From IMG/VR virus record IMGVR_UViG_3300011577_000001: a stretch of DNA of 64,000 nt. The stretch is one strand, 5' to 3'. Within the stretch, counting starts at the first letter, position 1. The number at the start of each line of letters is the position of its first letter. The position numbers and the translations under genes are program-made. Below are positions 1 to 30,872 of this stretch, piece by piece. A model generated the notes under the pieces. It was given only the letters and a program-made list of their open reading frames with translations, was not told the DNA's origin and did no database searches. This DNA is from a virus (taxonomy: Duplodnaviria; Caudoviricetes).

Positions 1-855
1 GTTCCCAGCAGTCACCTTCCAACGCATGGTCCCGGTGGAACCACAGTCGCCGTAGTGTACCCGTTGAAGCGTACCGCAACCGAGTTGGAGCTGTCGGTTG
101 AAGTATTCGGAATCCGCCACCGGGTCTTTTGCAGCTTCCAACGCTTTGGATGCCGATCGAGATTCGATCAACGCGTCGTACAGGCTGATCAGACCTTGGG
201 TGTAGTTCCGCATCACCGGATCGTGGAAGATCCGGGAGTCTACGTCAGTCAGGAAGCCCCGCAGAGAAACCACCTGCAACGTCTGACCGATGCTCACCAG
301 CTTAGACTTCACAGCCTTAGCAATTGGGTTGCCGATCAGTTCGTTGGGGTCTTTCAACACCGCCGTCACAGCACGATAAGTTTCATCGATACTCTGTTGG
401 GTCGGTTTCGCATTGGCGTTGGCCGCTGCGATCTTCGGATGCCGGATCACTTGGATGAAGTCAGTAATGCAGATACTGGCTACATGTTTCTCCTGCATCG
501 TCACGGTGTTGTTGTAGATCACCTGCTGCGTGTCGTAGATTGCTCGCGACCACTCTTCGTTGTCGTAGCTGATCCCGTTCGCGTTGCAGTAGTCCACTGC
601 CAAGGAGCGCCCCACGGCCATGAGGTCGTTGAACGTTTCCTTGGTCAGACGGTCATTCCCCATGTGCGACTTCTTGAGATGGGGGATCTGCGGGTAACGG
701 CGGTTGAACAAGGCGCAATACCACACGTAGATCGTGGACTCACGCTCAACCAGAAGGTCACCATCGTCGTATTCGATGATGAACTTGTCGTCCGGGAAGG
801 TCCAGACATCTTCTTCACTCTGCTGGTAAATCTCGCGTGCAGGGTAACGATTCAT
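1..855 (-). CDS. Non-virion RNA polymerase beta'-like subunit (phiKZ gp74-like), truncated by the window edge
   Basis: Not in the ORF track because it runs off the window. The N-terminus translated by hand from ATG 855 (AGGAGG SD) is MNRYPAREIYQQSEEDVWTFPDDKFIIEYDDG, resembling gp74. It follows the gp71/73-like gene as in phiKZ. Confidence 0.85.
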   Translation of the reverse strand, partial: MNRYPAREIYQQSEEDVWTFPDDKFIIEYDDGDLLVERESTIYVWYCALFNRRYPQIPHLKKSHMGNDRLTKETFNDLMAVGRSLAVDYCNANGISYDNEEWSRAIYDTQQVIYNNTVTMQEKHVASICITDFIQVIRHPKIAAANANAKPTQQSIDETYRAVTAVLKDPNELIGNPIAKAVKSKLVSIGQTLQVVSLRGFLTDVDSRIFHDPVMRNYTQGLISLYDALIESRSASKALEAAKDPVADSEYFNRQLQLGCGTLQRVHYGDCGSTGTMRWKVTAGN

Positions 856-865
856 ACTGGCCTCC

Positions 866-3043
866 TTAGGACTCTTCTTTCTTATAGACGAAGCGCATGC
901 CCGCACATTCAAGGATGTGGTTCACGAACACGTTGTTTCGACCATTACCCACCGGGAACTCTTTCCGGTCGATAACTTCCTTGATATCGGTAGGTTTCTC
1001 AGCTCGCATGATGTTTGCCAAGATTTCCTTACCGACGGTCGGGTTGTTGGACTGATCGATGATATCCGCCCACACTTCGCCACCACAGGTCGCCGCACCC
1101 AGACGCACTTCCGCCTCACCAGTCATCCGTACAGGCTGCGCAGCCCCTGGGTAACTGTTCTTGTCAGACTTGGTGATCTTGGCTGGGATACCGTGGTGTT
1201 GCAGTTTCGCTGCCGAAACGCCCGACCAATCGCCACCGGTTTTCTCCAGGACGATGATGTAGGCGCTACCGATCAATACAGGCTCGACGGTAGTGATTTC
1301 CTTGCCGAGGTAACCGATGAACTTAACCGGACCGTATACTGGCGGGAACTCCGCCTGCAACTGTTCGATCATGGTCGGGTAATCGACTGGGTTGTTGTTC
1401 GGCATCCACAGGTAGATCCCGTCCCGTAGAACGGAGAGCACGTGTGGTTCACCGGCGTTCGGATAGTCCGGCTCCATCATCATCTGCACCATCCACGGCG
1501 AGCAGATCTGATAGAAGCGCAGCAACGAACTGTACGCCAGTTGTACTTTCTCTGGGTCCAACCGCACACCAGGTTGTGGTGTTGTGAAGCGCAGCAACGA
1601 TTTAACCTCCTTAGGGACGTCGCTACCATCGCGATTGAAACCGAACAGCTCACGCAGGTTCTTGGTCAGACGGTCTGCCGAGGCGTTGATATACGGCTCG
1701 TACATGCAACCCAGGTTCATCCGCTTGATAACGGAGTAGGGCTCCATGATGATGTCAGCCCGGTTACCCTCAGCATCGACAGGCATCCGGTGGGCTGGCC
1801 ACACTTGGCAGATTACGCCTTTGTTACCGTGACCACCAGAAAGCTTGGCACCATCGGTTGGATGGGTGTCGAACTCAATGGTGATTTCCACCCGCCAATC
1901 GTCAAGCGGTTGCCGTCGATAGGTTTTACTCGCTTGTTGCCCTTGCGAGTTGGGTTTGTTCACATAGCCCAGCGCCTGGAAGATCAGCTCGTGGAACTCA
2001 GGAGTCAACGACAGGTTAGCGCCGTGAGACTTCTTGAGCTTGTAGTACACGTCCAGGATTTTCTGGGAGAACTTCAGGTTCGCCTGATAATACTTGTTCA
2101 TCTGGCGTTCCATACCCACAGGCGTCGGAGGATTCCGGTTGGTATCCTCGTGATACACCTGTACGTCAATGACGCGCGCACCCGGTTGAACATAGGTGAG
2201 TTTGTCGTAGACGTAGTCGACTTCTTGCAGAGCACCCACAGACATCTCTACGGGAGCCAGCAATGGATCGTACGGGCGAGTGGCAAACAGCAGGCCGTCT
2301 GGACGAACGTAGTCGCCAATGTCCGGGAACGGCTTGTACTGACCGGGGTTTTCCTTGTCGTGATACAGATTCAGGAACATGTGTTTCGAACCTGCCGACT
2401 CGGTGTACTTCTTGAAGCCTTTTGCAACGAGGTGAGGGCAGACGTCGTCAGCCACAATCACGCCGTCCTCGATAACCCCCGGCAACGACATGTACGCCAC
2501 CTTGAGTTCACGACCCAAGTTGTAGTTACCGTCTTTGTCATGGTTCGAGGAACGTGCCACCACGGAACCAGCAGGAATGCTAGCACCGGCATAAAGCTTG
2601 GAGGTCACGTCTTTGTTGAACTGGTACTTGAAACCAAAGTACTGGTGTTTGCAGTTAAACCGGGGGACCACCAAGACCCCAATTTCTAGTGTCTCCGCAT
2701 CTTCGTAGATGTAAACAGTTTCAGGGTTTTCAGCAATGGTGTCCACACCAATGGAAAACGGATAGCGTTCGATCTCTGCAATGATGTTCACATTGCGGTC
2801 AAACCTTTTCTCAAAGGTGAAACGACCGAACTCTCGTTCTGTGCCGGTTTGTTGCCGACGGGGTGTTGCTCCCTTAATTACCAGTGCTTGACCGTACTGC
2901 GAGTTGACCATCTGCACACGAGACGAACTGTTGGCGCGCAGGTGAGTAATGATACTACCTTGGCCAGTGATCTCTGGAAACAGTTGGTAATCTGTCGCCA
3001 TCGGGTCCGCGTTCGAATAGTGCGGAATGGGTGTATCGTCCAT
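866..3043 (-). CDS. Non-virion RNA polymerase beta-like subunit (phiKZ gp71-73-like), uninterrupted
   Basis: Beta-subunit motifs SSSRVQM, EDGVIV, GAKLSGGHGNKGVI, KRMNLG, and PVRMTGEAE; 725 aa. Confidence 0.93.
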   Translation of the reverse strand: MDDTPIPHYSNADPMATDYQLFPEITGQGSIITHLRANSSSRVQMVNSQYGQALVIKGATPRRQQTGTEREFGRFTFEKRFDRNVNIIAEIERYPFSIGVDTIAENPETVYIYEDAETLEIGVLVVPRFNCKHQYFGFKYQFNKDVTSKLYAGASIPAGSVVARSSNHDKDGNYNLGRELKVAYMSLPGVIEDGVIVADDVCPHLVAKGFKKYTESAGSKHMFLNLYHDKENPGQYKPFPDIGDYVRPDGLLFATRPYDPLLAPVEMSVGALQEVDYVYDKLTYVQPGARVIDVQVYHEDTNRNPPTPVGMERQMNKYYQANLKFSQKILDVYYKLKKSHGANLSLTPEFHELIFQALGYVNKPNSQGQQASKTYRRQPLDDWRVEITIEFDTHPTDGAKLSGGHGNKGVICQVWPAHRMPVDAEGNRADIIMEPYSVIKRMNLGCMYEPYINASADRLTKNLRELFGFNRDGSDVPKEVKSLLRFTTPQPGVRLDPEKVQLAYSSLLRFYQICSPWMVQMMMEPDYPNAGEPHVLSVLRDGIYLWMPNNNPVDYPTMIEQLQAEFPPVYGPVKFIGYLGKEITTVEPVLIGSAYIIVLEKTGGDWSGVSAAKLQHHGIPAKITKSDKNSYPGAAQPVRMTGEAEVRLGAATCGGEVWADIIDQSNNPTVGKEILANIMRAEKPTDIKEVIDRKEFPVGNGRNNVFVNHILECAGMRFVYKKEES

Positions 3044-15259: not shown

Positions 15260-17278
15260 TTAGCGGTTCCAGGTCCCGGTGAAGGGAGAGCTGAACAGGC
15301 GCGAGCCTTGTTGCTGACCGCCACCGTAGTTGAAGAAGCCACCAACGTTGTTGGCAACCAGGTGGTTCAGGTCGTAGCCACCACGCTGAGTCAGGACGTT
15401 GTTATCGTCCAGGCCCTTGGCAGGACGCACGTTCAGACCGCAACGTACGATTGCTTCGGACAGCGCGTCCATGAAGGCGTTGTCGAACGACACGCGACGA
15501 GCGAAGCCCTTGACGTGGATTTCCGAGGCCAGGAGCTGGCGCAGGATTTCCTTGCGCTGAGCCAGGCGGATTTCCAGCGGGACCTGCACGTTGCGGTGGG
15601 TTTCTTCCCAGGCTTCGACCAGTTTCGGGTTGGTCTTGCCAGCCAGGTTGAGGATGGCCAGGTAGTCGATTTCACGCAGGTCACGACGATTGCCTTCGCG
15701 ATCGTAGTAGAAGCCCAGGTGGATGCGATCCTGATCGTCGTAGCAAACCGGCTTGGTCGCGTCGAACAGTTGCTGGAAGTGACCCATGGTCAGGTTGTTG
15801 GCCGCTTGCAGGATGGCCAGACGAGCGTTCTCGTCGCCGTTGGCGGCGGCGATGTAGGTCTGGTGAATCCAGGACAGCTCGCCAACCTCGGCGATGTCGA
15901 GGGTGAAGATCAGCTTCGGCGCGATCAGGGTGTTGATGAGCTGGCGCATTTCGTTGTCACCGAAGTCGGCGGAACGAGTCGGCAGTGCATCAGGCTTGGC
16001 GTTCGGGTCACCGGTCAGGTTGACTTCGTAGCCGACAGCACCCAGGTCTTTCAGATCGACGTCGGTAGCCTTGCCCTTGTTGGCGCGCCAGGTACCGGTG
16101 TACAGCGCGTTGCGGTTCAGACCGAAGGCGGTAGACAGGGTCAGCAGTTGCAGTTCCATGTTCACGGCGTCGGTCAGGGTGTCGACCGAGGTCATCACCA
16201 GACGCGGCTGGTACATCTGAGTCGCCATCATTTGCTGCTGGCCGAACATACCGAAGGCGTTCTGCTGCGGCTGGAAGCCCGCTTGTGCCGGTTGGTACAT
16301 CAGGTCAACGTACGCACCCACGCGGGTGAGCTGACGGGTTTGTTGCAGGCTGAACTGCGAGTCGGCTTGGGACTGCGCGGACATGGTGACGATGATGTCT
16401 TCACGTACCGGCATGCCAACCAGGTCTTCGCCGTGCTGACGAGTGAACTCGACACGCGCGCTCAGTTGGTCACCAGCGCCGACTTCGCCCAGGGTGAACG
16501 GCTCTTCGGTGCCGCCGAGCTGGTTGTCCATGATGGTGTAGCAGGCCTGGGTGCTGTTGTGCAGCAGGCGGTTGAAGCGGTTCTCGGTGCTGACTTCGGC
16601 TTCGGCCGGGATCACGATGCCACCGGCGTCGTGGACCTGAGCGTTCATGCCGTAGGTGTTGATGACGAACTGCTCCAGAACTTGCCAGTACGACTTGTTC
16701 AGGTAGATGTCACCCGGTACGATGTCGACTTCGACGGTGGTGCCGCCCAGGTTGACGCTGTTCGGGTCCAGCGGCGCACCGCTCGATTCGATCAGCATGC
16801 TGTAGACCGCGATGTGGTCTTGGCCCTGGAAGTTCTCGTGGTAGCAGACCAGGATGCTGGAGAAGGTCACCTTGGACTGGTTGTTGTCCAGTACCAGGAT
16901 GTTGAATTCCTTCTTCTGCTGTTCGGTCAGCACTTTGGCGGCGCGTTCTTTCAGACCGGTCTGGATGGTCTGCACGTCTTCGCCGGACATGTTACGAGGA
17001 ACCGGACGGCGGTGGTTGGCGTTGACGTCGAGGACCGAACGGCCACGGCTGCCGACGCGAGAGTTTTGCTGGTTCATCTGAGCACCTGCGTTGAAAGGTT
17101 GTTGCGGTTGAGCGTTACCGCCAGTCGGCTGTTGCTGACCACCGGCTGGTTGTTGTGCTTGCTGGGTCTGATCAGCACCCTGCGGATTGAGGCCTGCTTT
17201 CAGCATGGCTTCTGCCATTGCGCTGTTCGCAGGTTGGTTCGACTGGCTCTGGCCAGGTTGGTTACGTTTGACGGACAT
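15260..17278 (-). CDS. chmA: Chimallin, major phage nuclear shell protein (phiKZ gp54-like)
   Basis: Start moved to ATG 17278 (AAGGA SD). 672 aa with Q-rich N-tail, RRDLREIDYL and strongly biased codon usage; directly upstream of the gp55-like gene and preceded by an early promoter. Confidence 0.9.
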   Translation of the reverse strand: MSVKRNQPGQSQSNQPANSAMAEAMLKAGLNPQGADQTQQAQQPAGGQQQPTGGNAQPQQPFNAGAQMNQQNSRVGSRGRSVLDVNANHRRPVPRNMSGEDVQTIQTGLKERAAKVLTEQQKKEFNILVLDNNQSKVTFSSILVCYHENFQGQDHIAVYSMLIESSGAPLDPNSVNLGGTTVEVDIVPGDIYLNKSYWQVLEQFVINTYGMNAQVHDAGGIVIPAEAEVSTENRFNRLLHNSTQACYTIMDNQLGGTEEPFTLGEVGAGDQLSARVEFTRQHGEDLVGMPVREDIIVTMSAQSQADSQFSLQQTRQLTRVGAYVDLMYQPAQAGFQPQQNAFGMFGQQQMMATQMYQPRLVMTSVDTLTDAVNMELQLLTLSTAFGLNRNALYTGTWRANKGKATDVDLKDLGAVGYEVNLTGDPNAKPDALPTRSADFGDNEMRQLINTLIAPKLIFTLDIAEVGELSWIHQTYIAAANGDENARLAILQAANNLTMGHFQQLFDATKPVCYDDQDRIHLGFYYDREGNRRDLREIDYLAILNLAGKTNPKLVEAWEETHRNVQVPLEIRLAQRKEILRQLLASEIHVKGFARRVSFDNAFMDALSEAIVRCGLNVRPAKGLDDNNVLTQRGGYDLNHLVANNVGGFFNYGGGQQQGSRLFSSPFTGTWNR

Positions 17279-17358
17279 CTCGTGTTCCTTTTCATTGGGG
17301 TTGAGCACTACGACACACCATTTGCCTATGCTCTATTTATTTACATTGGGCATGGTGT

Positions 17359-26095: not shown

Positions 26096-26105
26096 CACTC
26101 ACGTT

Positions 26106-26192
26106 TGGTACCCGAAGTCGGACTCGAACCGACATGGCTCAAGGCCGTCGCATTTTAAGTGCGGTGCGTCTCACCAATTTCACCATTCGGGC
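26106..26192 (-). tRNA. tRNA-Leu(TAA)
   Basis: Cloverleaf with anticodon loop CTTAAAA, long variable arm, GTTCGAGTC and encoded CCA. Confidence 0.93.
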
Positions 26193-26277
26193 AAATGGGT
26201 GCCTTCTCTACTTTGCCAGGTAAGGGTTCTTTGTTTCCACGCGCAGATCCACTCATTGACGAGAGAAGACATTGAAA

Positions 26278-26376
26278 GGGGTCCCCTGATGGATTCGAAC
26301 CACCGACCGTCGCATCCATTCTGTCCCAGGTTTGGACCAAGATGCACAACTCTAACCGACTGAGTTTAAGGAGACC
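26278..26376 (-). ncRNA. tRNA-like RNA with extended anticodon arm and no CCA
   Basis: Acceptor GTCTCCT/AGGGGAC, D arm and T arm (GGTTCGAATCC) are present. The anticodon stem GCATC/GATGC encloses about 24 nt containing a GTCC/GGAC hairpin. Confidence 0.7.
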
Positions 26377-26453
26377 ATCAACTGAATTCCCTGGGGAACC
26401 TTAATCGACTTGGAAGCCATTCAAAGTTTGATGGGAGACTCCCCAAGGGAAAG

Positions 26454-26541
26454 TGGCGGAAGGACAGGGACTCGAACCCTGGGACCTGTTACAGTCGGCG
26501 GTTTTCAAGACCGCTGCAATACGCCGCTATGCGACCCTTCC
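26454..26541 (-). tRNA. tRNA-Ser(TGA)
   Basis: Anticodon loop CTTGAAA, long variable arm, GCCA end. Confidence 0.93.
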
Positions 26542-26547
26542 GAAAAT

Positions 26548-26848
26548 CAAGCCAGGGCTATTCCCTGGAGTCACTCCCATGGCTAGGCACCATGACCGAT
26601 TAGAGCGAGGTCCTAAGCGAAACCGATCGGCACGGTTACTCGCTTACTCTTTCGAGTACGGATGTCTAGGCGTCTCGTTGTGTGAGCAACGATCCACTCG
26701 CCCGCAGGACAGGGCCACCAGCAGGGCAGGCGCTTGGTGTTCCTTGGTCAGGCTTTCGCCCGAGACAGCAGTTTCAGCATTCCTTTCGGGATATGCTTAG
26801 TCTTCGCTTTACGACGAGGACTGTAGAACGGAAAACCAGGCATGGCTC
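26548..26848 (-). ncRNA. Putative ~300 nt structured ncRNA between two tRNA-Ser genes
   Basis: Ends pair (AGCCA..GGTTTTCC with GGAATAGCC..TGGCT); three C-GAAA-G tetraloop hairpins on the minus strand. Confidence 0.65.
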
Positions 26849-26864
26849 TCTCCTTCTTAGAAAG

Positions 26865-26952
26865 TGGCAGTAGGTGAGAGATTCGAACTCTCGTGGCTGT
26901 TACACCAACACGCTTTCCAGGCGTGCCTTTTCGACCGCTCAAGCAACCTACT
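26865..26952 (-). tRNA. tRNA-Ser(GGA)
   Basis: Anticodon loop CTGGAAA, long variable arm, GCCA end. Confidence 0.92.
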
Positions 26953-26970
26953 GTGAAAGGTAAAGCAAAG

Positions 26971-27421
26971 TTCAATCAATACCCGGTGTGTGGTATCTTT
27001 TCGTTTACAGATCTGGTGGCCCAGCCAGGATTTCGGGTTGTACCTGGAATGCTACCTTGGAGGGTAGAGTTATACCTTTCGGCGTTTTTAACTATTGGGC
27101 CTTTCTTACCACACCACTGATTGAATCCCGCGAGGGAACTTCCAAACAGATAGACAAGATTCCTTTGTAACGCGTATTGTATTCGCTCTCTTTCAAACGA
27201 GTGGCCAGGGGAGCCTTCGGACCCTACTCCCACGTGGAACCCCGGTTGGTGGGGCTGCTTTAGAGCTTTTAGCGACTGGCCTTTCTACGTTACCGCTGTC
27301 TATCAAAATCACAAGCAGTAGATTTCACCGTACCGTCGGCTGTGATGTTACTTTCTACTTGCCTAGGCTTTCGCCTTGATTCCCTGCATCCAGACTCGCG
27401 TTACTGGATACTGCTTGTGAT
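26971..27421 (-). ncRNA. Three tandem closed structured domains (putative ncRNA or ncRNAs)
   Basis: Closing helices TTCAATCA/TGATTGAA (26971-27125), GATAGACA/TGTCTATC (27149-27304) and a perfect 13 bp ATCACAAGCAGTA/TACTGCTTGTGAT (27308-27421). Confidence 0.6.
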
Positions 27422-27463
27422 CTTTGTCAACCATCTTGTCGAGGACGACAACACAGTCGAACA

Positions 27464-27539
27464 TGGCACGCACCCAGGGAGTCGAACCCCGAACCTACGG
27501 ATTTGGAATCCGTTGCTCTGCCAATTGAGCTAGGCACGT
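27464..27539 (-). tRNA. tRNA-Trp(CCA)
   Basis: 76 nt cloverleaf, anticodon loop TTCCAAA, CCA end. Confidence 0.93.
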
Positions 27540-27546
27540 GTAAAAC

Positions 27547-27622
27547 TGGTAGCACCAAGTGGGCTCGAACCACCGACCTCACCCTTATCAGGGGTGCGCT
27601 CTACCAACTGAGCTATAGCGCT
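27547..27622 (-). tRNA. tRNA-Ile(GAT)
   Basis: 76 nt cloverleaf, anticodon loop CTGATAA, CCA end. Confidence 0.95.
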
Positions 27623-27629
27623 ATGAAAC

Positions 27630-28001
27630 TTAACCGCGACGGTTATAGTTGACGCGCTGGACTTCCAGCTCGACATACAATTCCATCGGGTATTGAGAAG
27701 GCAGTTCTACCGAGACACGCGCGATGGCAGTCTCAGGGTTGACGAATACCGCAAACGGAGCATTGGCGAAGGAGCCCAACACGCCTTGCATCTGGACACC
27801 ACGCTCGGTTTCGCTCTTGATCGGGCTGGTGATGTTGCAGGCAATGTCCACACCGTCAACGGTGGTGACACGCACTGCTTTCACCGACTCGATGGAGTCA
27901 GTACTGTCGAACTCTTCGGTCTGTGTAGCAATCAGACCAAACAGGTTGACTTGGCTAACCTTGAGCGGCAAACGAACGTGGTCAACAGGATACTTGTACA
28001 T
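27630..28001 (-). CDS. Beta-rich hypothetical protein, paralog of the C-terminal domain of the upstream Tad2-like fusion
   Basis: 123 aa; aligns by eye with residues ~90-211 of the upstream ORF. Confidence 0.7.
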   Translation of the reverse strand: MYKYPVDHVRLPLKVSQVNLFGLIATQTEEFDSTDSIESVKAVRVTTVDGVDIACNITSPIKSETERGVQMQGVLGSFANAPFAVFVNPETAIARVSVELPSQYPMELYVELEVQRVNYNRRG

Positions 28002-28010
28002 GACAGCCCC

Positions 28011-28646
28011 TTATTCAGAACGACGGTTGCGTTGGCCGTACTCGATGCGAAGAACCGCGAACAGCTCAACCGAATTCTCGGCAGCAGATGAACGCGTTGG
28101 CATGCAACCCCATTTCTGGGTGTCAACTTGGATGTTGACGTGTTGCTTACCGTTGAGGCGATCCGCAAAGGTCTTCAAGCGAGTCTCAGTACGGTGTCCC
28201 GGTACTTCGACGACGTTGCTCTTGACGACCAACCCATCAGCAGTCTCCAGGTGAACGACTTCCACCGAGAAGATAGCATCAGGACCCTCCAACACGGCGC
28301 CGGTTTCACCAGCCAACGTGAAGAGGTTTTGTTCAACGCCGTTCAAAGGAACGCGCACGTCAACCTTGGCAACGTAATCCTCAGCATCAAGGACTACCCA
28401 GTCGTCGGCAAGGATGTCGGACTGAGAAGCAACCCACGGGACAAAATCACCGTTGTGCGCTTTCAGACCCAGCCAAGGTCGCAGAGTCGGTGCAGGGTCC
28501 TTACGAACGTTGAGACCAACGGTGCGAGCACCCACGTCATAATGGCCAGAGCCAACCATGACGACCCACATGCCTTTACCGTTCCAGCCTTCGCGTGTGG
28601 CGCGAGAGCCATGCTTCAAAGCCGTAAGGGCTTGACCGAACTCCAT
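28011..28646 (-). CDS. tad2: Tad2/DUF2829-like cyclic-nucleotide sponge fused to an unknown C-terminal domain
   Basis: Start moved to ATG 28646 (AGGAG SD) because the longer ORF runs into tRNA-Ser. MEFGQAL...REGWNGKGMW...PWVASQSDILADDW is the DUF2829/Tad2 signature. Confidence 0.8.
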   Translation of the reverse strand: MEFGQALTALKHGSRATREGWNGKGMWVVMVGSGHYDVGARTVGLNVRKDPAPTLRPWLGLKAHNGDFVPWVASQSDILADDWVVLDAEDYVAKVDVRVPLNGVEQNLFTLAGETGAVLEGPDAIFSVEVVHLETADGLVVKSNVVEVPGHRTETRLKTFADRLNGKQHVNIQVDTQKWGCMPTRSSAAENSVELFAVLRIEYGQRNRRSE

Positions 28647-28667
28647 GTGAAGCTCCTGTTGTGAATG

Positions 28668-28753
28668 TGGCGGTGGGCGAAGGATTCGAACCTTCGGGGC
28701 CGCAACCCTCTCCCTTAGCAAGGGAGTGCGATAGACCGCTCTGCCAGCCCACC
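28668..28753 (-). tRNA. tRNA-Ser(GCT)
   Basis: Anticodon loop TTGCTAA, long variable arm, GCCA end. Confidence 0.93.
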
Positions 28754-28776
28754 CATTTGAAAAGATGAAACGAAAT

Positions 28777-28853
28777 TGGCTGGGATAGTTGGGCTCGAAC
28801 CAACGACCTGGTGATTAACAGTCACCCGCTACTACCAACTGAGCTATATCCCA
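28777..28853 (-). tRNA. tRNA-Asn(GTT)
   Basis: Anticodon loop CTGTTAA, GCCA end. Confidence 0.94.
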
Positions 28854-29356
28854 TTATAACGAATACCAAGAGCTACCCGACGAACCGTGTCTTTACCGAT
28901 TTCAAACTCCCGAGCAATTGCTCGATAGCTCATGGTACCGACCAGTTCAAGGATAGCCTTGACTGACTCTTCATCAAGCGCAGCATGTGGGCTGTCAAAC
29001 CCTTTCTTGCCTTCATACAAACCTAAGGCTTGCGCATGATCAATATTACCTTGATGCGTTACCCACTCCAAGTTATCCCACCGGTTATTTGTCTTATCCG
29101 TGTCCTTATGGTTCACGAAGGGAAGATTCAACGGGTTAGGGACAAAAGCCTTGGCCACTTGTACATGAGCCCTTAAACAGAACGACTTACCTTTCCTTCC
29201 TCCTATCTTGGAGGCGTGAGTAAGATAGCCATTATGGTTGGGCGTCAGTGCCAAATCTTGGAACGTGCGAATGCTAAACAGTGTCCCGAAATTGCCGATC
29301 ATGAAGAGATCAGGGTAGTCAGGACATTCCGTGAAGACTTCAAATTCATACGACAT
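28844..29356 (-). mobile_element. Free-standing HNH homing endonuclease in the tRNA cluster
   Basis: VNHKDTDKTNNRWDNLEWVT...N HNH motif plus C-terminal HTH; own early promoter at 29381-29410. Confidence 0.88.
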
Positions 29357-29428
29357 GTACTACTCCAGTAAGTGTTACTTCCTGTAAGTAATATACATCT
29401 GAACTATTTTAGTCTCCTAGGAAGGAGA

Positions 29429-29505
29429 TGGCGCCTCCGAGGGAACTTGAACCGTCGACCCCCGGCGTGACAGGCCGGTGCTCTAACCAACTGAGCTACG
29501 GAAGC
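29429..29505 (-). tRNA. tRNA-Asp(GTC) with a disrupted T stem (possible pseudo-tRNA)
   Basis: Anticodon loop CTGTCAC and CCA end are normal, but T stem GACGG/TCCCT has two mismatches and two G-U pairs. Confidence 0.8.
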
Positions 29506-29699
29506 GAAAACGTCCTGAGGAAAATGGACTCTGCAATCACCCAGACTGTGCCTGTAGGTGCATCGCGTGTAGGCTCAAGGTTCATGTAGACAACCATGGG
29601 CCAAGAACAATCCTGAGCGTGTCGACCGACGTGTAGCACTCGGAAGCGCAACCCGCTAGGAGAGAGGTACTCTCGATCCTTCTCGACAAACTCTAACAT
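29496..29699 (-). CDS. Small DUF1653-like protein
   Basis: 67 aa with FRVLHVGRH, MVVY and VWV...F...F; GAGGA SD. Confidence 0.6.
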   Translation of the reverse strand: MLEFVEKDREYLSPSGLRFRVLHVGRHAQDCSWPMVVYMNLEPTRDAPTGTVWVIAESIFLRTFSLP

Positions 29700-29720
29700 T
29701 GTTCATTCCTCTAATTCGGC

Positions 29721-29950
29721 TCCGGCTTGCTTCCCACCGCTTCGGTGGTTCACTGTACAACTCACCTGTAAACCAGACGACCCGCCGGAGAGGTCTTTAA
29801 CTAACTACGTCAGCACACCTAAGGTTCCGAAGAAGGTAGGTACTTGATGTAGATCCACTGGAGTACTAGCTCTCGTCGACGTTGGCACTAACGAGATTGG
29901 GTGATCCTCCCGGCGGGGACATCCGCCGAGTTAATGCACAGTGAGCCGGA
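29721..29950. ncRNA. Putative ~230 nt structured ncRNA
   Basis: Closing pairing of TCCGGCT+TCACTGT with ACAGTGAGCCGGA; internal hairpins CTACGTCA/TGATGTAG, TCTCGT/ACGAGA and CGGCGG/CCGCCG. Confidence 0.6.
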
Positions 29951-29974
29951 TTTTCGTAACGCACAAAGGCAAAC

Positions 29975-30256
29975 GACACGGCATGGCAAAGGATCGTAAG
30001 GGTGGTCTCCCCGTAGTTCTCCCACGAGGTTAAGGGACCGCTGCGGCGCTATGCTAGATGCTTTTGTCCGCTGCGACAATCCAAGACCGTTGTTTGACAC
30101 GCCTCGCCTCATTGGGTTGGAATTCCCGAGACTTATTTTCCCTGACTGATGACGCTCTCAGCATCGACCGAGCGGGTTACTCCTTTCCAAGGGAGCACCT
30201 ATCTAAGTCTTACAAGGTAAAACCACCGTATCGCCAGCAAGGGTCGTCGCGGTGTT
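29975..30256. ncRNA. Putative ~280 nt structured ncRNA
   Basis: ORF-free, with nested pairings GACAC/GTGTT, GGTGGT/ACCACC and AGACTTA/TAAGTCT. Confidence 0.45.
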
Positions 30257-30261
30257 AAAAG

Positions 30262-30348
30262 TGGTGGTCGAAGGATGGAATTGAACCTCTAGCACAAGGC
30301 GGCGCGTTTACAGCGCGCTGACAGTAGCCATCTGTCTCTACAACGACC
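30262..30348 (-). tRNA. Atypical tRNA-Tyr(GTA)-like gene
   Basis: Anticodon arm GCGCG-CTGTAAA-CGCGC and ACCA end, but the acceptor has U-U mismatches, the D stem is 5 bp and the T stem is bulged. Confidence 0.65.
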
Positions 30349-30355
30349 GTGAAAC

Positions 30356-30486
30356 TGGTGCCCCGTTACTCTATTACGAGTGTCTGTTAGACTGACCCCG
30401 TGAGAGGGGAGTTTGGGTTTGACCGGCTCTACATTCCCACCCCGAAGGGTTCACAATGCGATCTCCGATGACCTCAGACCAGGACA
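30356..30486 (-). ncRNA. CCA-terminated non-tRNA stable-RNA candidate
   Basis: Acceptor-like stem GTCCTG/CGGGGC followed by ACCA, with CCC-TTCG-GGG and other hairpins; no D loop or TTCGA T loop. Confidence 0.6.
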
Positions 30487-30499
30487 TGAAACTAGAAGA

Positions 30500-30632
30500 T
30501 GGCCCCGCTACGTGGACTCGAACCACGGACCTCCCGCTGGCACGCGCATTCAAACGTCATCACTGCCGGAAGGGCTGCTAGCGACGTAACCGCATGTCTA
30601 ACGAGTGCTCTAACCAACTGAGCTATAGCCGG
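30500..30632 (-). ncRNA. tRNA-like RNA with a ~60 nt hairpin replacing the anticodon loop
   Basis: Canonical D arm (AGCTCAGTTGGTTAGAGCA), T arm (CGTGGTTCGAGTCCACG) and GCCA end. The anticodon stem continues through CATGCG/CGCGTG and ACGTCG/TGACGT. Confidence 0.75.
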
Positions 30633-30635
30633 GAT

Positions 30636-30872
30636 GTGAGAGAAGGCCGCTACCCCGATCTACGGGCCGTGATACTCTCGGGGACTCAGGCGAAAGGGAA
30701 CCAAAAGCCTAAGAACTGCGGTATGCAAGCGCAGTCGTCTATTACCCCAGAGTCGGGTCGCAATATCATTCGATGGTGTGTGGGGTCCGTCAAGTCTCCA
30801 CGTTCCCTCTCGGTGGCGAAACCAAGAGCGTGCTGGAACTTACCATTCAAACAAATCACGTCATTCTCTCAT
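30636..30872. ncRNA. Putative ~235 nt structured RNA at the upstream end of the tRNA cluster
   Basis: Closing helix GTGAGAGAA/TTCTCTCAT; internal ACTGCG/CGCAGT, AGGC/GCCT and GGGG/CCCC stems. Confidence 0.5.

Follow-up and report, generated by a model that had tools for sequence, protein, structure and literature searches.

A 99-base gene in the tRNA island of an uncultured nucleus-forming (chimallin-encoding) jumbo phage probably encodes a maintained tRNA-shaped RNA that takes no part in decoding. Judged from aligned sequences of related phages, the tRNA body (acceptor stem, D and T arms, elbow nucleotides and the base of the anticodon stem) has been preserved through compensatory changes. 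The anticodon arm, non-canonical in every allele, is never a normal anticodon stem-loop, and its length and sequence vary such that it differs in almost every related phage. These two observations support the original prediction, made from the DNA letters, of a non-decoding tRNA-shaped RNA. The element lies in a 64,000-nucleotide stretch of IMG/VR record IMGVR_UViG_3300011577_000001 (hereafter, the window).

Genomic context

The chimallin shell protein gene of the window (15260-17308, minus strand) flanks the tRNA island together with genes for a divergent family B DNA polymerase and a split multisubunit RNA polymerase. The closest chimallin of any cultured phage reaches ~30-31% identity at most. 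The island occupies the minus strand from ~26100 to 30650 and contains eight tRNAs based on ARAGORN and Rfam. A strong terminator (30942-30925) precedes it, and no strong terminators were found between this position and the element. We gathered related contigs from IMG/VR and JGI metagenomes by means of the polymerase gene and a conserved spacer pattern; across the window and these relatives, islands hold 8-13 true tRNAs. There is no tRNA-His in the window, and relative L002 has one. A protein with a Tad2-like (anti-Thoeris) domain and an HNH homing endonuclease are also encoded within the island (Table 1).

Two spacers flank the element (26193-26277 and 26377-26453, minus strand), each forming a folding unit closed by its own helix. 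The downstream spacer motif GGATCTGCGC..GGAAACAAAGAACCC is kept in all related contigs (three IMG/VR and nine metagenome records). Elsewhere in the window, a low-scoring tRNA-like gene with a 3' end of A-CCA occurs at 30266-30348 on the minus strand; ARAGORN identified it as tRNA-Tyr(GUA) at a relaxed threshold only, and its Rfam tRNA-Sec score is 20.3 bits.

Architecture of the element

RNAfold predicted an intact cloverleaf on the minus strand, read 5' to 3' from 26376 down to 26278 (Table 1), in agreement with the earlier claim that the D arm, T arm and acceptor stem are kept. In this minimum free energy (MFE) structure, the acceptor stem (GGUCUCCU/AGGGGACC) has 8 bp, or 7 bp if G-1:C73 is counted separately, and the linker between the acceptor and D stems is longer than usual. 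The anticodon arm had been described as lengthened, with its loop replaced by a nested hairpin; the MFE structure likewise has an irregular hairpin tip of 26 nt, and along the arm the stem GCAUCU/GGAUGC leads through a 2x5 internal loop to the nested hairpin. The 3' tail reads C73-C-C-U, as it does in relatives L014 and L018:1834-1913, whereas an encoded CCA directly follows all eight true tRNAs of the window, so the difference in 3' ends was also predicted correctly.

Table 1. Positions of the element, its parts and two protein genes of the tRNA island in the window.
Feature	Position	Strand	Basis or location
tRNA-shaped RNA gene, 99 bases	26278..26376	-	RNAfold cloverleaf MFE; R1 model; ARAGORN intron search
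Acceptor stem 5' strand, GGUCUCCU (G-1 + positions 1-7)	26369..26376	-	pairs with 26280-26287
D arm: ACUC, loop AGUCGGUUA, GAGU; G18 and G19 present	26349..26365	-	MFE
Anticodon stem 5' strand, UGCAU (positions 27-31)	26342..26346	-	pairs with 26311-26315
26-nt tip replacing the 7-nt anticodon loop: CUUGGU + 19-nt insert + G	26316..26341	-	L014 alignment, R1
Nested hairpin, GUCC-AAACCUG-GGAC	26323..26337	-	MFE
19-nt insert relative to L014, CCAAACCUGGGACAGAAUG; boundaries movable by one G	26317..26335	-	alignment
Anticodon stem 3' strand, AUGCG (positions 39-43)	26311..26315	-	MFE, hand alignment
Variable loop, ACGGUC, 6 nt (one above usual; same in L014)	26305..26310	-	hand alignment
T arm: GGUGG, loop UUCGAAU, CCAUC	26288..26304	-	MFE
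Acceptor stem 3' strand, AGGGGAC + C73	26280..26287	-	MFE, hand alignment
Encoded C74 and C75, then U26277 where A76 is expected	26278..26279	-	sequence
Tad2-like (anti-Thoeris) domain protein	28011..28721	-	within tRNA island
HNH homing endonuclease	28844..29356	-	within tRNA island

Default ARAGORN made no call at the element; with intron search, it called a tRNA-Thr(GGU) with a 17-nt intron. The top Rfam match was tRNA-Sec (RF01852; 20.9 bits, E = 1.2, threshold 47), and no RF00005 match was listed at E <= 10 (gathering threshold 29 bits). Based on RF00005, the copies in relatives L008 and L011 scored 27.9 and 32.9 bits, and the copy in L014 had no match at E <= 1; Rfam tRNA scores of the clade's true tRNAs are 41-74 bits. 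The folding energy of the element is no better than chance (z = -1.14; 26 of 200 shuffles fold equally well or better), and it is the comparison with relatives that supports a real feature.

Of the features that define a canonical tRNA, the element has the acceptor, D and T arms and the elbow nucleotides. It also has a 5-bp anticodon stem, but the loop on it has 26 nt, whereas a canonical one has 7 nt, U33 and a purine at position 37. We rejected three other assignments: tRNA-Sec (based on the score given above, the 6-nt variable loop and the lack of a UCA anticodon loop); a group I intron, which would need a group I core and a length of at least ~200 nt (the insert is only 19-20 nt, with no Rfam intron match); and YrlA or another Y RNA (no match to model RF02553 at the element and no intact TROVE partner in relatives).

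A family of tRNA bodies with variable anticodon arms

We distinguished nine alleles of the same tRNA body (window, L014, L008, L011, L003, L005, L018a, L018b and L019b) in a clade that is small and in which several loci derive from the same or related samples. The window allele has the 26-nt tip with its nested hairpin. The alleles of L014 and L008 (the latter identical to L010 and L013) have the 7-nt loop CUUAGUG, L018:1834-1913 (identical to L019:489-568) has the 7-nt loop CUUCGUG, and L011 (identical to L012) has the 6-nt loop CUUAGG. At L003:4156-4237, the arm is a 9-bp helix with a UUCG cap. The remaining alleles (L005, L018:4057-4186 and L019:3682-3809) carry rods of ~60 nt; the L005 rod is capped by CUUAGG, and the L018 and L019 rods are distinguished by a compensatory C-G to U-A change.

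A hand structural alignment of six alleles has 124 of 126 stem cells paired and compensatory double changes at 17 of 21 pairs. Compensatory changes in the acceptor stem were seen relative to L014, L008, L003 and L005; the D stem covaries within the family (A-U/G-C and C-G/U-A), as do four of the five T-stem pairs, and the D loop AGUCGGUUA is invariant. Because MAFFT alignments A3 and A4 were out of structural register, we counted covariation on the hand-segmented alignment and on a model-based alignment (A7). In A7, 89.7% of cells are paired and both partners have changed in 15 of 21 pairs; its covariation is 0.657 versus 0.30 in shuffles (0 of 500 reach the observed value) and falls to <= 0.17 when partners are slid.

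A covariance model built from four alleles (R1) scored the window element at 86.3 bits (E = 1.5e-17). The six short-arm alleles score 56-96 bits with R1 and true tRNAs at most 47.6 bits; the three long-arm alleles, at 39.6-45.3 bits, fall within the true-tRNA range. The element has the features by which the family is recognized, namely a covarying body, the shared D loop, an odd anticodon arm, no CCA, and synteny by tRNA-Ser(UGA). Using R1, we found no family member in the tRNA region of phage phiKZ. The phiKZ genome (L093, AF399011) has an annotated 87-89-nt "tRNA-Asn(GUU)" with a long extra arm (804-892, minus strand), which is preceded by sequence resembling a tRNA 5' half.

None of the nine alleles encodes CCA. 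Position 37 is U wherever a 7-nt loop exists, and the same body carries A, C or G as the middle base of the "anticodon". Together with the low or absent Rfam scores, these are marks of a fold that is maintained without decoding, and the alleles that keep a 7-nt loop may still allow some decoding. Some genomes carry two paralogues of the family plus two further anticodon-less tRNA-shaped families.

One other tRNA-shaped family, of ~131-133 nt, occurs in the window at 30500-30633 (minus strand) and at L002:45-176, L003:1253-1384, L011:2366-2496 and L013:9609-9739. Its members have normal D and T arms, an encoded G-CCA, and a ~73-nt insert replacing the anticodon arm; their sequence is conserved among relatives, and their R1 score is ~38 bits. 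Hairpins capped by C(UUAG)G also recur in the clade, including a spacer hairpin 3' of the element in L003, L005 and L011 (GGUUCC-UUAG-GGAAC), the L011 loop and the tip of the L005 rod. The window has a spacer hairpin at 26386-26402 (minus strand) with CCAG in place of UUAG. The C(UUAG)G cap could be a common protein-binding or processing motif.

Comparison with the closest relative

The closest relative, L014 (JACCDR011056049.1), has the same gene in the same slot, which in both phages lies between tRNA-Ser(UGA) upstream and tRNA-Leu(UAA) downstream. Over the 200 nt upstream of the element, the tRNA-Ser gene is identical, the 77-nt spacer has four differences, and there is one 1-nt gap. Both copies share the D arm, variable loop, T arm and C-CC-U tail. 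The L014 anticodon arm is UGGCC-CUUAGUG-GGUCG, without the 19-nt insert, and three of five anticodon-stem pairs are changed on both sides between the two alleles. Of two acceptor pairs that also differ, one has changed at both bases (C-G to U-A) and the other from U·G to U-A.

The L014 copy itself has U37, no CCA, a G-1:C73 acceptor pair, and no Rfam tRNA match at E <= 1. We therefore did not find the situation named in advance as speaking against the original prediction, a normal tRNA at this site in relatives with uncompensated decay in the window: L014 is non-canonical too, and the differences between the copies are compensated.

In L014, the place of the neighbouring tRNA-Leu(UAA) gene (26106-26192, minus strand) is taken by a divergent allele of tRNA-Leu(UAA), while the surrounding sequence is nearly identical. 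This swap indicates that cassettes were exchanged between phages, and the breakpoints lie in the conserved spacers. Because the adjacent gene was also swapped, the difference between the window and L014 elements may stem from cassette recombination and not from selection on the arm. The slot is mosaic in the wider clade, with another element in L002 and L009 and no slot element at all in L005.

The alternative occupant of the slot is a different tRNA-shaped element (L002:4893-4985, L003:4360-4455 and L009) with a G3-U70 acceptor pair and a class-II-like D arm. The anticodon arm of this element has 5 bp and a triloop and covaries (GUCGC-AUU-GCGAC versus AGCGC-UAA-GCGCU), and the element is nested in a covarying outer stem (GAGAG/CUCUC versus GGGGG/CCCCC).

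The 19-nt insert

Where L014 has the loop CUUAGUG, the window has CUUGGU, 19 nt and then G. This comparison places the extra letters between loop positions 37 and 38, and the R1 model agrees. Since 37/38 is the canonical position of tRNA introns, the placement is consistent with an intron-containing decoding tRNA, which the original prediction had offered as an alternative. In that case, excision of the 19 nt would yield the loop CUUGGUG with anticodon UGG, and the product would be charged and used. The tRNA called by ARAGORN with intron search and the encoded C74 and C75 are also consistent with this explanation. However, a motif scan of the element found no strict bulge-helix-bulge (relaxed hits have 24-34-nt loops), and both would-be splice junctions lie inside helices of the MFE structure.

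We searched for processing enzymes in the records of relatives, namely G001 (the record of L002; complete at 243.7 kb, with terminal repeats) and two partial relatives. PF01974, PF01139 and PF09414, which represent the splicing endonuclease, RtcB and Rnl2-type ligase, were absent from all of these records, and positive controls were present; the ligase result does not extend to T4 Rnl1 (PF09511), for which the search had no positive control. The absence of a bulge-helix-bulge and of a splicing endonuclease or RtcB/Rnl2-type ligase makes splicing unlikely. In addition, the arm differs from that of L014 beyond the insertion, 19 nt is far below the size of self-splicing introns, U37 would persist in the spliced loop, and the same body has UAG, UCG or no anticodon in relatives. 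Splicing of such introns is not known from bacteria. Overall, we consider an intron-containing decoding tRNA highly improbable.

Persistence of the insert allele and database searches

Logan contig L094 is identical to the window over 2.3 kb, element included, and possibly derives from the source sample. Assembled contigs of four sequencing runs from four studies (X1, X2, X3 and X5) also cover the element. The nested loop in X3 and X5 is as in the window, and X1 and X2 lack one loop C (26329); among the differences listed for the run contigs, this 1-nt loop deletion is the sole internal one. Just outside the gene, X1, X2 and X3, but not X5, have T>A at 26378. The same X1 and X2 contigs have 16 differences within a spacer of ~100 nt (26602-26705). 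Judging from these contig sequences, the insert allele is real and stable.

Two element-specific patterns had no matches in IMG/VR, and a pattern of the L003 type matched L005 and L007 only. The spacer pattern and the insert pattern had no matches in GTDB genome contigs, and blastn against INPHARED phages returned generic tRNA-arm matches only. Within 1.57 Mb of related loci, we found no source copy of the insert (12-mers at chance level only), and the window contains no antisense target, with no complementarity to the insert reaching 12 nt. A full-text literature search, of incomplete coverage, returned no account of this family, nor of any tRNA body lacking an anticodon within the tRNA arrays of jumbo phages. 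The family is thus apparently undescribed; tRNA-like RNAs as such are already known.

Possible functions

The explanation that we tentatively prefer, at slightly below even confidence, is that a maintained non-decoding tRNA mimic is cut from the tRNA operon and occupies a tRNA-binding factor. The RNA would be transcribed together with the neighbouring tRNAs, host RNase P would recognize the tRNA body and cut the 5' end, and host 3' tRNA-processing enzymes would trim the 3' end. No CCA-adding enzyme was found in G001 and the partial relatives; the host CCA-adding enzyme could complete the encoded C74 and C75 of the window allele to CCA. The product would be a stable small RNA of ~97-100 nt, barred from decoding, with the anticodon arm as a variable appendage. 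Its tRNA shape would act as the mimic, and the likeliest target would be a host tRNA-directed defence or a processing enzyme. That the RNA works specifically as a decoy or competitor is plausible, and we give it rather less than even weight. If it were a decoy for anticodon nucleases, its arm should resemble the anticodon loop of the target, which is not the case for these arms, and the single-sequence folding energy, no better than in shuffles, also counts against the preferred explanation. So do the possible cassette recombination relative to L014, the 7-nt loops kept by two alleles, and the small clade with its partly shared samples. An extended version, which we regard as unlikely, is that a constant tRNA chassis with an exchangeable, fast-changing anticodon arm forms a natural "tRNA scaffold", a class of counter-defence RNA diversified by an arms race. 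Such an RNA would sequester or misdirect host enzymes to which tRNAs are known by their shape, for instance anticodon nucleases, acceptor-end transferases or Cas13-type RNases, and leave translation undisturbed.

The main rival to mimicry in trans, to which we assign a low but appreciable probability, is that the element is only a processing module. The body would then be kept for RNase P and 3' enzymes to cut the operon transcript, which would free or stabilize the flanking structured spacer RNAs and tRNAs, and the excised RNA would be functionless, with a drifting tip. The location between two conserved structured spacers, each with its own closing helix, in a tRNA array without a strong internal terminator is consistent with this proposal, as is the anticodon tip being the sole unconstrained part. 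The absent CCA also fits endonucleolytic 3' cutting, a link that follows from what is known of RNase Z/BN and phage T4 tRNAs. However, for RNase P and RNase Z the acceptor/T-arm minihelix and the elbow suffice, and compensation has nevertheless kept the base of the anticodon stem; the long arms also have a compensatory change of their own. Mimicry in trans is favoured over a processing module because the 8-13 true tRNAs already punctuate the island, because some genomes carry two paralogues and two further anticodon-less families, and because the Tad2-like gene lies alongside.

Two further explanations appear less probable still. The element could be a neutral relic, a former tRNA gene that lost decoding, gained an insertion in the anticodon loop and is heading to loss; the mosaic slot, the HNH endonuclease gene within the island, the missing CCA, the 6-nt variable loop and the long acceptor-D linker agree with this. 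The pairing and compensation across six alleles, the conserved D and T loops, and an allele that is nearly unchanged where the spacers of relatives diverged argue against it, and we judge a relic improbable. The element could also, by analogy with tRNA-His, be an amino-acid carrier that acts independently of an anticodon: A76 would be repaired and the RNA histidylated, and it would then be used outside the ribosome or soak up the synthetase. The G-1:C73 pair followed by CC(A) copies the acceptor identity of tRNA-His, and HisRS recognizes G-1:C73 in minihelices. G-1:C73 followed by CC-U is found in the window, L014 and L018:1834-1913 despite their differing stems, and the lack of a tRNA-His in the window, with one in L002, is also compatible with a carrier. 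However, L008, L003, L011 and L005 lack G-1:C73 and have tails of CGCA or AUGC, and a carrier role seems very improbable.

Implications

The usual explanations for tRNA genes in phages are codon supply and the replacement of tRNAs cut by host defences. In this family, the features needed for folding and processing are kept and decoding has been given up in various ways in close relatives, which suggests that the tRNA shape has a function in its own right. If the shape does have such a function, some of the "odd tRNAs" and "pseudo-tRNAs" of phages would be a separate class of small RNA. A decoy role, if true, would add RNA-based counter-defence to nucleus-forming jumbo phages and would provide a natural precedent for the tRNA scaffolds used in RNA engineering. 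If the element is a processing signal only, it would show how phage tRNA operons are punctuated.

Comparison with known systems

Folds resembling tRNA occur in the stable species 1 and 2 RNAs of the phage T4 tRNA cluster, in MALAT1 mascRNA and in engineered tRNA scaffolds, where the fold recruits RNase P and 3' processing to yield a stable small RNA, and inserts in the anticodon arm are tolerated. To our knowledge, no family with a hypervariable anticodon arm is known for T4 species 1 and 2 or mascRNA. The working mode proposed for the element would be similar to that of these RNAs. Relative to a canonical tRNA (RF00005), the element shares the acceptor, D, anticodon and T stems, U8, G18G19, the T loop UUCGAAU and a position in a phage tRNA array; it differs in its 26-nt tip, the lack of an encoded CCA, the long acceptor-D linker, the 6-nt variable loop and the sub-threshold Rfam score, and relatives that keep a loop differ in the pyrimidine at position 37.

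Archaeal and eukaryal intron-containing tRNAs, which undergo bulge-helix-bulge splicing (reviewed in PMC4090602), resemble the element in having extra letters at 37/38 and an insert that pairs with part of the anticodon loop. The element, unlike them, belongs to a bacterial virus, lacks a bulge-helix-bulge, and comes from a clade without a splicing endonuclease or RtcB/Rnl2-type ligase. Compared with tRNA-Sec and allo-tRNAs with a long acceptor (RF01852; PMC5389517), the similarity lies in the 8-bp reading of the acceptor stem and in tRNA-Sec being the top Rfam match, whereas the element has no long variable arm, no UCA, a 5-bp T stem and a normal D arm.

The two ends of YrlA (RF02553; PMC4201824) lie in a stem that binds Ro and takes the place of an anticodon arm, and the RNA works with Ro60. 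YrlA-type Y RNAs of bacteria and phages have a tRNA-like domain; they are non-decoding, mimic the elbow and acceptor of tRNA and are handled by tRNA enzymes, features that the element would share. The element differs in that its 5' and 3' ends lie in the acceptor stem and in having no RF02553 match. We found no intact Ro60/TROVE gene in relatives. In G001, a weak TROVE/Ro60-like match (25.1 bits) at 190175-190561 on the plus strand lies near the tRNA island; with three internal stops and a strand opposite to that of the genes, it is probably spurious.

Some phage tRNAs (PMC10264068) escape anticodon nucleases by changes in the anticodon loop, keep a loop of 7 nt and still decode. The element resembles those tRNAs in being phage-encoded, in having its variation in the anticodon loop, and in a plausible tie to host tRNA-directed defence. 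In the element's family, the loop has been replaced, capped or extended and decoding has probably been lost.
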